DNA of 63,679 nt, filler included, from Octopus bimaculoides (taxonomy: Eukaryota), in the NCBI RefSeq assembly GCF_001194135.2. It is 10 parts of 8 records of this genome, joined end to end, with 100 filler letters (N's around TTAATTAATTAA, not from the genome) between each part and the next. Parts side by side here need not be neighbours in the genome. Positions count along the whole stretch, not along the records: positions 1 to 4,260 come from NC_068995.1; positions 4,361 to 12,239 come from NC_068991.1; positions 12,340 to 24,503 come from NC_068998.1; positions 24,604 to 27,598 come from NC_068983.1; positions 27,699 to 30,644 come from NC_068983.1; positions 30,745 to 40,729 come from NC_068982.1; positions 40,830 to 50,258 come from NC_068999.1; positions 50,359 to 59,326 come from NC_068988.1; 2 more parts are not named here. The stretch is one strand, 5' to 3'. Shown here one piece after another: positions 475 through 53,410 of the stretch. Under the pieces are notes generated by a model. It worked only from the letters and a program-made list of their open reading frames with translations, did not search any database and was not told the DNA's origin. A program made the translations under genes and the position numbers. Numbering within the stretch: the first letter of the stretch is position 1; each line of letters begins with the position of its first letter.

Positions 475-809
475 CATACACGAAGAGAAAACCACCATGT
501 GGATTTCTTACATGCTAAAAATGGCAGTAAAAGCCTAAAACCACGAAGGAATATTCTTACATTAAAGCACATTGATTTGTATGCGAGCAAAATATGTGAG
601 TGAATAAAATATAGTAAACCTTATACTAATACGTTTTGCTATTACTGACCAAATAAAACAACTAATAAGATAATTAATTGTTTATTTAATCATCCGTAGC
701 TCATCAGTGAAGTCGCAAATTAATGTAAAAATATTCTTTCCTGGTTTTAGGCTTTGACTGCCATTATTAGCATTATTAAATCCACATGGTGGTTTTCTCT
801 CCGTGTATG
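475..809. repeat. Foldback element with ~90-bp inverted arms (475-564 / 721-809)
   Basis: CATACACGAAGAGAAAACCACCATGTGGATTT...TTACATTA matches the reverse complement of 721-809 with scattered mismatches. Confidence 0.9.
625..713 (-). ncRNA. Degenerate type I hammerhead ribozyme motif with a long stem II
   Basis: Minus strand: ACTTCA-CTGATGA-GCTA...(long AT-rich hairpin)...TAGC-AAAA(G12A)-CG-TA-TTAGT. Stem I is partly decayed. Confidence 0.5.
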
Positions 810-810
810 T

Positions 811-1034
811 TTAGTGGAATATTCAGCTAGAATAGTGGAACATCCAGCTAATTTAGTGGAATATCTTGCTAATTTAGTAGAATATCCAGCTAATTTAGTA
901 AAATATCTTGCTAATTTAATGGAAAATCTTGCTGATTCAATGGAATATTTTGCTAATTTAATGGAATATCCAGCTAATTTAATGGAATATCTTGCTAATT
1001 TAGTGGAATATTCTGCTAGAATAGTGGAATATCC
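811..1034 (+). repeat. 21-bp minisatellite, ~10.5 copies
   Basis: Unit TAGTGGAATATCCAGCTAATT / TAGTGGAATATCTTGCTAATT. It explains the heptad-repeat ORFs 754-1080 and 747-1037. Confidence 0.95.
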
Positions 1035-3225
1035 CACCCCCGTTACTTATAGGTGTTTCTATTCATTTTTTATAGAATGAAAACAATGCAAGCTGCAATA
1101 AATAATACAGATTTTTACTTTTATCATGTATTTCAATATTTTAGGATGAGGACCACTTCTTGAACACCGTTTCTCCCATTTCCTGTAGTGTGGTGGGCGA
1201 CGGGTTCTAACCCTGAAATACTCTCATACAAGATAATCGTACTAACCATCTCTTATAAAAAAAAATATCTAGAACATTTATATATATCAGACAATGTTTC
1301 GTGCAAACTATACTCTAATATTATTTATGTTGCAGTATATACTGCATATAATATCAGAAAAGTATTTATCTTTGTCTCATGACTTTTGTTTGTTTGTTTT
1401 TTTTCTTTTTCTTGTGAGTGACATTCTATATTACTTTAGTAAGAATATTGTGTTGAGTTTTCTTTGTCTCTGATATTGGTAAAATAAGTAAATATCAAGA
1501 ACGTTCAGAGATCTTGCCCTTCAATAAGTTTAGTGATGTCTGGAGATTTCTCAGGGGTTTTGGTTGAAAGAGGAAATTTTTCTTAGTAGCTTTTTAATGA
1601 GGGAGAACAAATTTTGTAAGAAGCAGACGATAAAACTACCATTATATTTGTGCAAGAGGAGTATGGGAATTGAATAAATATAAAAGATTCCTTTCTCTCT
1701 TCTAATATTGATTATGTCAATTATAAATTTTTGTAATCGCATCTCAGGAAGAAATTGTTATTAGCAAATCAGAAAATGAGGGAGAAGATATTTTATATAA
1801 AGAAAAAAAAAAAAAGAAATAGCCAGATGATAAAATATTTTCATTCTTTTCCTTTTTGTTTCGGATATAAAGAGGAAATTTTTTTTTTAAATCAAAAAAG
1901 TAAAAATTAATAAAGCATTTCCCTCTTCAACGGCTGACGTTGATTATGTCAATCAGTTCAAGAATTGTGAAGAAGAGAAAATAACTTCTTGAACAATAAC
2001 AACAACAATTGTCTGAATAGCTTATCTTTTTTAGATAAGGGTGGGAGGGGACAACAATGGAACTAAGCAGGAAAATGGCTCTTCGAAATAACAAAACCTA
2101 ATAAAGAAATGAAAGGGAATAAAAACTAGAAAAAGGAAATAGAAATGAAAGGCAAGAAATATCTTTTGGACAAATGTGTTTTTGTTTTCTTTATTTTCGA
2201 TTTGTTTGTGAATTTCCGTTTACGAATAACTCCTACCCCGGAATTTTCTTTTGTGCTTTATTCCACCCCCGACATTTTTTTTCTGTGTATTTTATCTCTA
2301 CAGTCTATCATTGACAAAATTTATAAATCAAAAGTTGTTTTCTGAAATGATTTATATCCTTACTGTATTATCATATTTCTTCTATGGGTTGAGAAATTTC
2401 AGGAGGCGCAGCTAACTGAATCTTAACTGAAAAGCCGATCGTTCCTTCCCATTCAACCCCATTCCGTGTGTCTCGAGATATCTGCATTCATGCCTCATTC
2501 AAGCGGTGGACAGCTGTCTTCTTTTCTGGCATATTTAGGACTTCTTTACCCGGTATATTCATCTCTATTTAAGATGATAGGGTAACATTTGAAGTTAAAT
2601 TTGACAGCTAATTTTAGCCTGTCATACGATCTCACAGAAGTTCCTATATATATATATACGTTAATAATATTTTTATAAGCTCTAAGCTTATGAAAATATT
2701 ATTTACAGAATTTTCTCTCGTCACCGCTTCCAAATCATCGAATGTGTGTGTGTGCGTTTGTGTATGTATATGTGTGCGTGTGTGCATGTGTATGTATGTA
2801 TGTATGTATGTGTGTATGTATGCATGCATATCCGTATGTATATAATTAAAAAACAAGCTTCAAAGGGCATAAACGCGTTTCAGCAAAATACAGAAATAAT
2901 TACAAAAAGCTGTATTTTTTGTGAAACACTGATGATGTTAAGTGCGTGATTACATAATGTTTCTACAACTGTTATGTAGATACACGTGTTTATTTCTGAA
3001 ACACGTGTATGTCCTATACAACAGTAAATAGAATACCTGTTTTATGTTTGATATTTTATTACGGTGTTTAATCGGCACATATTCCGCACACATTAGGCTA
3101 TCGAGAGGTTGGCACCCCGCGTCGTACTGCACTACATACGTGTGTGGGGTATGGAGCCCGCTACTAAGAGAGATTTTGATCGCGTGGCCCTGTTAGATAT
3201 ATATGTATCTATGTGTGGGGGGATG

Positions 3226-50378: not shown

Positions 50379-50588
50379 TCAGACAAATACATAACAAAAA
50401 TAGCAGGACTTACAAATATATATAACATACAGAAAATTGCACTACTGGGTACTGCACACATTCTACGCAAAACACTTTCAATACAGTAAACATAAGAGCA
50501 CCACAGCAAACCACAGCACATACCCAAGGCGCACAGAGCTGCGCTCGGTAGTGAAGTGAAAGCACGTTATAAAAATAAAACTACTGAA
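50379..50588 (+). mobile_element. R4/Dong-like 3' end followed by (TAA)n
   Basis: GIIKKYSDKYITKIAGLTNIYNIQKIALLGTAHILRKTLSIQ*, with the same 3' UTR as 42113-42300. Confidence 0.85.
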
Positions 50589-53246
50589 TAATAATAATAA
50601 TAATAATAATAATAATAATAATAATAATAATAATAATAATAATAATAATAATAATAATGATGATGATGATGATGATGACGATGATGATGATAATAATAAA
50701 AATAATAATAAAAATAATAATAATAATGATAATCTCTTATATAATTATAATCTCTATAAATATTGCCTGGTTCGATGATTGGTTTGTGCAGTTACGCATT
50801 TCATCGTATAGAGAGAGGTAGCTGGCGTAAAACAGAGTTATAGAGAGAGAGGGATAAGGAGTGAGAGAGAGAGAAAGATTGAAAGAGAGAGAAAGATTGA
50901 GAGAGAGAGAGAGAGAGAGAGAGAGAGAGAGAAAGAGAGAGAGAGAGAGAGATAATATAAGAGGAACAGATAAGAACACATACTCGGATTGGTAGCATGC
51001 AATGAATTAAGACCGCTACACGTATATGTACAGTAAGAGAGAATACAATCAAACAGACACAGAAGTGGGAAGAGGAGTAGAAAATGCATAAATGACGTAG
51101 TAGATAGTTGTTTAAAGTGGGAAGGAAAAGATGAAGGGAAGAGGCAGGTTTGAAAGCGCTGCAATTCAGGACAGTAGAATAATGGGTTAAAAGGAATAGG
51201 AATAAATGTTATAGAATAGAAGGACTAAAAGTTAGAGGAAACAGAGAGAGATTGAGAGAGGGGAAGAGAGAAAGAGAGATAGAGAGTCATGGGAAATGGT
51301 GTTTGTTATAGGAGGGTGATATTTGGTAAGGTGCTCACAAGATAAGAAAGAGTGGGGGAACAGTAGAAGATGGTAAGCAAAAGGTAAAAAGTTGGGGAGA
51401 GAGAGAATAGAAAGATATTAGAAGGGAGACAGTCAATTGCAGATGCATTATAAAGGAAATTAAGGAAAGATATGTATAAAGGAAATTTATGCATATCTTA
51501 TTTGAATAATTATTTAAGAAAAGTTGTAATAAAAAAAAAAAATCCATTAAACACGAATTTAAACATCACAAAATGTAAAATATTTTGACAGTAACAAAGA
51601 AACATAAATCAAATGTTACCCTGAAAATATGTAGGTATCAGGTGAAGGTACAGTATATATAGACACAGTCAGAAATATGTATGTATGTGCATATAGATGT
51701 ATGGATGAATATAGACATGCAAATATATAAACATATTCATGCATACACACGCATTTATATGCACACATGTACATACATTCATATATATNNNNNNNNNNNN
51801 NNNNNNNNNNNNNNNNNNNNNNNNNNNNNNNNNNNNNNNNNNNNNNNNNNNNNNNNNNNNNNNNNNNNNNNNNNNNNNNNNNNNNNNNNNNNNNNNNNNN
51901 NNNNNNNNNNNNNNNNNNNNNNNNNNNNNNNNNNNNNNNNNNNNNNNNNNNNNNNNNNNNNNNNNNNNNNNNNNNNNNNNNNNNNNNNNNNNNNNNNNNN
52001 NNNNNNNNNNNNNNNNNNNNNNNNNNNNNNNNNNNNNNNNNNNNNNNNNNNNNNNNNNNNNNNNNNNNNNNNNNNNNNNNNNNNNNNNNNNNNNNNNNNN
52101 NNNNNNNNNNNNNNNNNNNNNNNNNNNNNNNNNNNNNNNNNNNNNNNNNNNNNNNNNNNNNNNNNNNNNNNNNNTGCGCAGACATCAGATCCTACTCATA
52201 TATGTAGATTAATTTTAAGCTAATATATTAATTTTCTATAAGCAGTAAGAAATTTCAAGCAATTTCAATCATATATGTTGTTTGTATGCCACATTTCCGT
52301 ATATAACCAATAATAGCAAAATATACATCCAGTGTTGGCGTACTTTATGTGTTAGCCCCAATTTTTCTTAAAGCCGTAACGGAATAATGGGCGCCCATTA
52401 TAGTGATAAACGAGAATATCCATTTCATGCTTTATTTGAGGTCTAATACTTGTATTTAATGAGTAACTGTTATAGTTAAAAATGCCGAGAAAGGATTTAA
52501 CTTTTAAAGAGAATCGCTAAACTATGACAAGTTGTTTTGCCCTGAAGCATCATATTCTCCGCTTCTTTGACAAAGTATCCTACTCCGAATATCAAATCTC
52601 GCCTCTATGACGAACAAAAGAAGATATTGTATTATCAATTTGTATAGTACAATATAAATGAGTACTATATGACTGTAAGATTCCCAACTTTTAGTTGCTA
52701 GCTGACGATGTGTAACATCAAATAGACATAAACTTTACATCTACCATAATTCGACAGAATATATTAAATGTATATTGCTAAATAAACGCTATCAATATAT
52801 AATTGATATCATGGAAACCCTTTGTTTCTAGAATTTATCGTATAGAAATATATATCACATGTATTACATCATTCTTATATATATATAAAGAGAACATTTT
52901 CATTCTCCTTCTTCTTGATAATTTGCTTCATCGCAGTGAAGGCCGGTTGGAGGGAATCTTTATTAAATTGTGCTCCCAGTTCAGCATTCTGGCTTTTTTT
53001 CATNNNNNNNNNNNNNNNNNNNNNNNNNNNNNNNNNNNNNNNNNNNNNNNNNNNNNNNNNNNNNNNNNNNNNNNNNNNNNNNNNNNNNNNNNNNNNNNNN
53101 NNNATATATATACATATATATGTATATATTATATACATATATATACATATGTATATATATATTATATTCATATATATATATGCATATATATTGTATACAT
53201 ATATATATTATATACAGATATATATTATATACATATTATATATATA

Positions 53247-53410
53247 AAAAATTAAGGAATGGAGAAAACGCATATTATAACTGCATACTTTATTCCGACA
53301 TATATTTCGAAGAATTACAATTTATGCGATCCATAGGAATAGGCGATGTTAAAAATGTAAACTTCTCCTCAGGGAAATGCATGGAAATCATCTCCATTCC
53401 TTAAATTTTT
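53247..53410. repeat. Short foldback element with ~19-bp inverted ends
   Basis: AAAAATTAAGGAATGGAGA at 53247-53265 and TCTCCATTCCTTAAATTTTT at 53391-53410. Confidence 0.75.
53293..53376 (-). ncRNA. Type I hammerhead ribozyme with an intact core and long stem II
   Basis: Minus strand: TTCC-CTGAGGA-GAAG..TTACA..TGTAA..CTTC-GAAA-TATAT-GTC-GGAA. GUC cleavage triplet, and stem I can extend via TGCAT/ATGCA. Confidence 0.75.

Follow-up and report, generated by a model that had tools for sequence, protein, structure and literature searches.

Introduction

In the insertions of Penelope-like elements (PLEs), an inverted copy truncated at its 5' end often adjoins the 5' end of the element, and a tail of 30 to 40 bp is often found at one end (PMC8557442); the same inverted truncated copy and one-sided tail are described in PMC3846280. 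Cephalopods carry PLEs (PMC8557442), PLE terminal repeats carry hammerhead ribozymes, and squid has hammerheads recognized by Rfam (PMC6962438, PMC6431247). Here, we analyzed a stretch of 63,679 nucleotides of Octopus bimaculoides, joined from 10 parts of assembly GCF_001194135.2 and referred to as the window. It is AT-rich, microsatellite-rich animal DNA with 5,098 N. A preliminary description had reported four hammerhead-bearing elements in it, designated E1 to E4, as short fold-backs of one layout that might be mobilized as RNA. We conclude that the arrangement of E1, E2, and E4 is most likely the known insertion shape of PLEs and not a new rod-shaped RNA element.

For Poseidon of Anolis carolinensis (PAc), it was reported that cutting and extension at AT-rich DNA involve both strands, that reverse transcription starts at two internal sites which define the tail, and that uncleaved RNA is the main substrate, ribozyme cleavage not being needed (PMC11167929). 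The origin of the tandem and inverted structures of PLEs is still called unresolved (PMC8557442, PMC11167929). Retrozymes are organized in tandem (PMC7229834; 10.64898/2026.07.22.740005). In Drosophila virilis, transcription begins 46 nt before the intron of the pseudo-long terminal repeat (pLTR) (PMC2377424), and this intron ends at helix I (PMC4209133); a transcription start at the ribozyme is therefore not general.

Results

Eleven fold-backs were catalogued in the window, including E1, E2, and E4. The inverted arms match in 84 of 94 aligned columns in E1 (472-565 and 720-812), in 64 of 75 in E2 (11086-11158 and 11355-11429), and in 25 of 27 in E4 (53239-53265 and 53391-53417). Read in the ribozyme sense, C3 of the CUGANGA motif lies 12, 13, and 18 nt past the end of the 5' arm in E1, E2, and E4, respectively, which bears out the earlier placement of a type I hammerhead close behind this arm. 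The 3' arm had been described as following the ribozyme, which it does not do directly; it begins 142, 183, and 107 nt past C3. The distance from C3 to the outer end is 127 to 326 nt, and the hammerhead is located upstream of the 3' end in the sense of the element, the sense that it also has in the Penelope-like remnant of the window and in four related loci. In all three cases, a longer direct copy is met directly at its 5' end by a short inverted copy of the 3' end. On this reading, the hammerhead of the family would belong to the longer direct pLTR copy, and its place between the arms would simply result from the joining to the shorter inverted copy. The layout ascribed to four elements, with inverted arms and a hammerhead inside one of them, is that of E1, E2, and E4; the arms of E3 are a continuation of stem I. 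As had been noted, the four elements have no obvious sequence in common, sharing AT runs only.

What was shown for E1 comprises its pair of arms, a hammerhead located in the long copy, a multicopy long arm, a one-off junction, and a one-sided extension. Public contigs from three DNA-type runs (X2, X14, and X15, from organisms A, B, and C) and reads of one RNA run (X21) were aligned on positions 385 to 850, the DNA-type runs contributing 216, 95, and 163 contigs. Contigs that fit one arm alone may have been placed on the left arm. In X2, the summed contig depth, which is not a copy number, was 548 to 8,786 over positions 401 to 720 and 333 at 385 to 400, against 80 to 91 over 721 to 784 and 43 in the flank. 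The contig matching the E1 locus exactly had a depth of 35.5. Both X14 and X15 exhibited the same depth step near 720. The long arm is therefore multicopy, and the junction belongs to a single locus; a fixed fold-back family would raise the depth across 720, and no such rise was seen.

Among the 15 joints listed for the E1 family, 9 connect opposite strands (494-547, 518-675, 520-584, 525-723, 526-692, 532-608, 556-721, 581-708, and 619-708). All nine differ from one another, none equals the 565/720 joint of E1, and each is represented by one contig per run. Truncation and junction points therefore vary among the copies of this family, which supports a head-to-head insertion, as does the presence of a Penelope-like remnant of reverse transcriptase (RT) and endonuclease (EN) with a 3' hammerhead in the same window. 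Loose ends at 708 and 723 (3 + 4 + 4 contigs) run upstream into noninverted sequence; those at 708 (3 and 4 contigs, agreement of about 0.7) are complementary to stem I on its 3' strand. Both the junction and the flank are spanned by one X14 contig (551-840), so the insertion is also present in organism B and is old.

The family reaches past the arm end at 472 to at least 385, giving an insertion of approximately 430 bp (about 382 to 812) with an extension of about 90 nt on one side. The matching length of 334 to 335 bp given previously for two elements is consequently spurious and was dropped as a shared feature. The two copies overlap by 4 nt (TTAA, 720-723), since family contigs match up to 723 and the short arm begins at 720. 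The end of this arm falls within the loop of a small GTGTAT/ATACAC hairpin. A 21-bp minisatellite (810-1040) starts exactly at the outer end of the short arm. In run X21, nine reads were placed on E1, all less than 90% alike and confined to 476-528, with no pile-up of ends and no joints (about 6/100 parts of the run, too shallow to count). No RNA data set was listed as containing E1, which speaks neither for nor against its transcription. Exact patterns of 20 to 22 nt from E1 to E4 gave no match in any of four scans of viral contigs, and those of E1, the only element scanned there, gave none in metagenome contigs.

The E1 hammerhead has a long stem II hairpin with three G-U pairs and a predicted cut between 624 and 623. 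By depth, the letter of the GAAA motif prevails at position 637 in X2 (594/734; 12 contigs), X14 (46/53; 7 contigs), and X15 (240/270; 8 contigs). The majority letter at position 632 accounted for 496/734, 53/53, and 240/270, respectively, and that at 628 for 471/734, 26/51, and 191/261. Taken together, the majority letters provide GAAA at 637 and render the 8-nt stem III palindromic through 632 and 628, yielding an intact family hammerhead. An alternative register for E1 (AAAA-CG-UA) was dropped, as the family letters favor the 8-nt stem III. Positions 658/681 in stem II show a possible A-U to U-A swap that is compatible with pairing; it was not counted, the register in the U run being ambiguous. 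The features of all elements are compiled in Table 1.

Table 1. Positions of the elements, their hammerheads, and the Penelope-like remnant in the window
Feature	Position	Strand	Remarks
E1 long (direct) copy	382..723	-	Terminal pLTR part of a multicopy Penelope-like family; from contig depth
E1 one-sided outer extension ("tail")	382-471	-	Outer end abuts (TG)n, approximate
E1 hammerhead	612..719	-	C3 707; GAAA position 637-634, here AAAA; stem III insert of 8 nt
E1 short inverted copy	720..812	+	Mirror of 472-565
E2 short inverted copy	11086..11158	-	Mirror of 11355-11429
E2 long copy	11159..11429	+	Ends in (TA)n and assembly gap
E2 hammerhead	11165-11240	+	C3 11172; GAAA 11222-11225; palindromic CTCGAG
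E3 region	12340..12702	+	344-bp unit 12359-12702, its final 19 nt also present in front of it
E3 hammerhead	12414..12537	+	C3 12459; U4>C; 6-bp stem I; 4-bp stem II; palindromic TCCGGA
Penelope-like RT-GIY-YIG remnant	14567..15660	+	5'-truncated, frameshifted
Minimal hammerhead of the remnant	15857-15904	+	Open reading frame sense, ~200 nt past the remnant; read by eye
E4 long copy	53239..53390	-	Outer end in (TA)n
E4 hammerhead	53293-53376	-	Intact core; C3 53372; GAAA 53308-53305; predicted cut after 53297
E4 short inverted copy	53391..53417	+	Mirror of 53239-53265

By analogy, E2 and E4 are likely insertions of the E1 type, having the same orientation, the same spacing, and an outer end in (TA)n. 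A (TA)n tract also borders E3 at its outer end, and the corresponding tract at E1 is (TG)n. The E2 hammerhead has a decayed stem II and a predicted cut after 11233. The flank on the inverted side of E2 pairs with the arm, and a tail may be present on this side. By eye, the reverse complement of the E2 outer flank (11078-11110) has an 11-nt word in common with positions 15920 to 15950 (approximate), past the hammerhead of the Penelope-like remnant; this may reflect a shared end motif and a tail on the inverted copy, or chance. No one-sided tail was seen at E4.

Whole-element folds of the three fold-backs are very stable (z of -19.8, -11.6, and -3.9). In E2 and E4, the spacer is no more stably folded than shuffled sequence (z of -0.1 and 0.4), and the value of the E1 spacer (-2.6) is due to the stem II hairpin, with three G-U and no A-C pairs. 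Counted on the ribozyme strand, arm mismatches of the G-U versus the A-C type number 2 versus 1 in E1, 2 versus 2 in E2, and 0 versus 0 in E4, i.e., without bias towards the ribozyme strand. Since the arms lack a G-U bias and the spacers of E2 and E4 behave like shuffled sequence, DNA duplication alone accounts for the rod shape.

The hammerhead motifs are real. The score observed no more than 25 nt from either arm was reached by 5 of 3,000 spacer shuffles for E1 and by none of 3,000 for each of E2 and E4, using a descriptor composed after the elements had been inspected. Applied to the whole window, a descriptor with at most one core mismatch, a 4-bp stem II, and 4 of 5 bp in stem I returned 4 matches, compared to a mean of 0.15 (maximum of 1) in 20 local shuffles. 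Such motifs are thus far rarer in shuffled sequence, the comparison that the preliminary description had proposed, although two looser settings were near chance (7 versus a mean of 2.35, maximum of 5; 6 versus a mean of 2.5, maximum of 7). Matches at 15601, 19487, 42452, 56753, 31169, 40097, and 41443 were obtained with loose settings and were taken as chance; the four that were checked had no arms. Of the other eight fold-backs in the window, seven contained no hammerhead match and one contained a weak match.

Among the copies in the window, only E4 combines an unbroken core with a 4-bp stem II. E1 has AAAA for GAAA, E2 has two of four stem II pairs, and E3 carries U4>C. Helix III is palindromic in E2 (CTCGAG), E3 (TCCGGA), and E4 (TATATG, with one G-U) and, by the family majority letters, in E1. 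In a check against covariance models, none of the four elements matched an Rfam hammerhead family at an E value of ≤5. The long helix II loops probably defeat the Rfam models. A scan of the entire window with Rfam yielded, among the matches listed (best 150 of 253), only microsatellite-driven microRNA. Given their palindromic stem III, these ribozymes are predicted to cut, if they do so, within the parent RNA when dimeric or when assisted by protein.

Three further candidates were noticed. A minimal hammerhead at 60345-60480 (minus strand; C3 60448) has A6>U, an unpaired base before a 4-bp stem II, and 6/6 bp in stem I; it lies about 105 nt ahead of a gap and (TA)n and has no inverted arm. A decayed candidate at 52690-52785 (plus strand; C3 52702; UAAA for GAAA; long loop II) is situated about 500 nt from E4 on the opposite strand, and no arm was found. 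At 2864-3016 (plus strand; C3 2929; GAAA CACGTG UA), a weak 29-nt inverted arm (2864-2892) mirrors the 3' half of the candidate ribozyme; this region may be a fifth inverted insertion, older than the others and joined at a different point. Around its core, 23 of 25 nt match the start of a Penelope-relative locus (L012).

The Penelope-like remnant is 57 to 58% identical to protein P0001 across the C-terminal part of the RT and the endonuclease, with the YLDD region and the YIGQTG motif visible. Named relatives of its protein include bivalve and Octopus proteins, and a full-length relative (P0007) contains RVT_1 and GIY-YIG. The hammerhead downstream of it has 10/11 bp in stem I, a palindromic stem III (CCGG), and a weak stem II. 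Its core reads GUGAACA in this single copy, with G3 and C8 forming a swapped C3-G8 pair, which may be either a natural core variant or two chance mutations; an engineered swap of this kind in PAc retains partial activity (PMC11167929). A GC-rich, CpG-rich insert of 1.7 kb (12900-14580) with internal direct repeats was noted directly upstream of the truncated open reading frame (ORF). When the strict descriptor was applied to 46 loci of the remnant's relatives, five matches were obtained in the ORF sense and none in antisense. Three are downstream of the ORF, one is upstream, and one, probably a chance match, is inside; the four flanking the ORF have a palindromic stem III.

E3 likely stands apart as a tandem unit of the non-LTR (LTR, long terminal repeat) retrozyme or pLTR type. 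Its "arms" (34 of 48 columns matching, with 4 G-U versus 1 A-C) continue stem I and hold the ribozyme as their loop. This extended stem I forms a long imperfect hairpin (z of -6.4) with a predicted cut after 12491. The circular fold of the unit (z of -6.2) is 63% paired, at a GC content of 46%. Alternatively, E3 may be a solo insertion flanked by a target site duplication (TSD) of at least 19 bp, a possibility that deserves some weight, though clearly the lesser one, given that an exact 19-nt direct repeat recurs 344 nt apart and that no second ribozyme was seen, a gap adjoining the unit. However, the left repeat directly follows the assembly gap, the right repeat runs out in (TA)n, as the other elements do at their outer ends, and the 19-nt repeat can pair, if weakly, with positions 12661-12677 of the unit (z of -1.5; 18 of 200 shuffles as good). 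Penelope TSDs reported in rotifers are 8 to 10 bp long (PMC3846280).

Other repeats in the window include the commonest interspersed one of about 200 bp (9591-9987, 27856-28470, 31570-33177, 61499-62985, and others), which forms partial tandems and inverted pairs beside (TAA)n. It has no hammerhead, and its arrangement resembles PLE or short interspersed nuclear element insertions. An element at 34193-34827 has 84-nt inverted repeats, internal (CCCTAA)n runs, and an internal duplication across a small gap, features which we take to resemble non-autonomous Helitron-like repeats. Transposon remnants with weak Pfam matches below cutoffs were found at 21248-22095 (-), 42947-43180 (+), 31703-32209 (+), and 55837-56220 (-), comprising a mariner-type transposase, a Tc1-type helix-turn-helix, and two non-LTR RT fragments.

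Discussion

We consider it highly probable that E1 is a very short Penelope-like insertion of the head-to-head kind and that the same likely holds for E2 and E4, each being composed of a longer direct pLTR copy with a hammerhead and a shorter inverted copy. Several points weigh against this. Summed contig depth differs from copy number, and the figures for the E1 family refer to the rows listed, beyond which there are another 162 rows of variants, 195 loose ends, and 483 pieces as well as one more joint. Joint 526-692 was found in two runs, and an X15 contig (465-748) crosses the E1 junction but stops short of unique flank; orthologous loci would explain both, as would re-amplified fold-backs. 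Direct repeats of at least 7 nt, the TSDs searched for, were absent within 70 nt of the assigned ends of every element. The true outer end of E1 is just beyond that range, and none was apparent there by eye either; a TA duplication would not stand out inside (TA)n. The extension of E1 is about 90 nt long, compared to the published 30 to 40 nt. Among E1 to E4, the family-level evidence comes from E1. Searches with blastn and tblastn of E1 to E4 against the remnant, 93 PLE proteins, and the 46 loci produced no credible link and no autonomous partner, with the exception of one weak AT-rich 37-nt match of E4. Finally, none of the five hammerheads among those loci, which are on short metagenome contigs, has an inverted arm.

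The preliminary description suggested self-contained elements. In that case, fixed fold-backs would give rise to full-length, rod-like ribozyme transcripts, circular or not, which Penelope RT would reinsert as units in trans. The stability of the whole-element folds, the alike ribozyme-to-arm spacing in three unrelated families, the joint shared by two runs, and the X15 contig are compatible with such a cycle, and the family evidence covers E1 and not E2 or E4. It is nevertheless very unlikely, as the E1 junction is confined to a single locus, other copies have other junctions, the arms show no G-U polarity, and the spacers of E2 and E4 are unstructured. In addition, as is established for retrozymes, a lone ribozyme per element cannot free a unit-length circle without a tandem (10.64898/2026.07.22.740005).

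Miniature inverted-repeat transposable elements (MITEs) have fixed terminal inverted repeats (TIRs), a uniform length, and a superfamily-specific TSD. That E2 and E4 are TA-targeting MITEs of DNA transposons whose interior happens to hold a Penelope-derived hammerhead seems most unlikely. Their outer ends look symmetric and are in TA-rich sequence, where a TA duplication is possible, but the position and orientation of the ribozyme are those of E1, whose asymmetric ends and variable junction set it apart from MITEs, as had been suspected. Moreover, three unrelated MITE families would each have to capture a ribozyme 12 to 18 nt from an arm. That the motifs are chance matches inside ordinary fold-backs is scarcely credible and for E1 largely refuted: despite the missing Rfam match, the deviations in core or stem II of three of the four copies, and the late composition of the descriptor, at most 5 of 3,000 shuffles reach the score, the E1 family letters are nearer to the canonical core and a palindromic stem III, and the eight other fold-backs gave a single weak match.

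Penelope machinery, invoked from the outset, is the likely mover of head-to-head insertions such as E1, which matches the published PLE insertion shape. Following published Penelope biochemistry, an RT-GIY-YIG protein would nick both strands of AT-rich or microsatellite DNA, and two cDNAs would be primed on uncleaved element RNA. Downstream of the ribozyme, two internal sites would be available for each cDNA to begin at, and the tail difference would result from this choice. Both would stop early and then be joined at their truncated ends, at E1 presumably via the 4-nt microhomology. The inserted copies would then most likely be dead and decay neutrally.

In three unrelated families, represented by E1, E2, and E4, the junction is located at the 5' edge of stem I and precedes C3 by 12, 13, and 18 nt, respectively. 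In four of the nine other E1-family joints, the end of the long arm is at 708-723, just 5' of C3 (707); joints farther upstream are invisible on the E1 reference. This preference is not absolute, because 11 contigs with loose ends at 708 or 723 continue upstream. A tentative explanation, to which we give a minor share of our confidence, is that the families are short noncoding, pLTR-only RNAs that start at the ribozyme and are mobilized in trans, uncleaved, by a Penelope protein. If so, the genomic scars would map both ends of the template RNA in vivo, its start being the ribozyme, and the RT start sites would be the loop of the AT/AC-rich hairpin near 476 and a site about 90 nt further on, so that the double-priming model of how Penelope inserts could be tested across a genome. 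Should the clustering of junctions 5' of the ribozyme hold genome-wide, these mini-insertions would be cheap in vivo footprints of the template start, the RT start sites, and the use of uncleaved RNA. For annotation, the lesson is that a short hairpin with a hammerhead in an invertebrate genome can be mistaken for a MITE or a viroid-like rod and yet be a product of Penelope insertion.

In comparison with described systems, E1, E2, and E4 resemble MITEs in being short, noncoding, and bounded by inverted repeats, but the ends of E1 are asymmetric, its junctions vary among copies, no TSD was found at it, and its copies do not form a fixed TIR-bounded unit of uniform length. Non-LTR retrozymes consist of tandem units of 150 to 450 bp, each with a type I hammerhead (PMC7229834; 10.64898/2026.07.22.740005), whereas E1, E2, and E4 are inverted and single. 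E3 alone resembles them in its 344-bp unit, type I hammerhead, good fold, and head-to-tail overlap, although its GC content of 46%, its U4>C core, and the second unit and ribozyme not seen at the gap distinguish it. As in PAc (PMC11167929), the insertions end downstream of the ribozyme and lie in AT-rich targets, and the whole ribozyme would be copied because uncleaved RNA is the template. The PAc start sites, however, are inside the ORF (one in a stem loop at +111-118), whereas E1, E2, and E4 end 127 to 326 nt past C3 with no recognizable ORF, and the consulted part of the PAc paper does not show how an inverted junction is formed.

Known PLE-linked hammerheads have the same CUGANGA/GAAA/UH core, a small palindromic helix III, and an enlarged helix II. 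They are mostly single scattered motifs attributed to truncated PLEs, with opposite-strand pairs 100 to 700 bp apart. The helix II loops in the octopus window are long (43 to 63 nt between the core halves), and each of E1, E2, and E4 has one ribozyme, because the short arm stops before it. No paper describing the E1 to E4 families in cephalopods was found, the search having excluded Repbase, Dfam, subscription journals, and supplements such as file S1 of Craig et al., which lists Octopus PLEs. The combination, thought to be possibly undescribed, is in print for PLEs (PMC3846280, PMC8557442, PMC4209133); the features are real and their architecture is known, while the families have probably not been annotated. 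Compared to insertions of endonuclease-positive PLEs (PMC3846280; PMC8557442, Fig. 2), the direct copies are so short that no ORF is included, and the E1 extension exceeds the usual tail. The likeness comprises head-to-head terminal copies of which the inverted one is shorter, a one-sided extension, a short junction overlap (15 bp in Pen2a_Av and 4 bp in E1), a TSD that may be present or absent, microsatellite or AT-rich targets, and a hammerhead in the pLTR.

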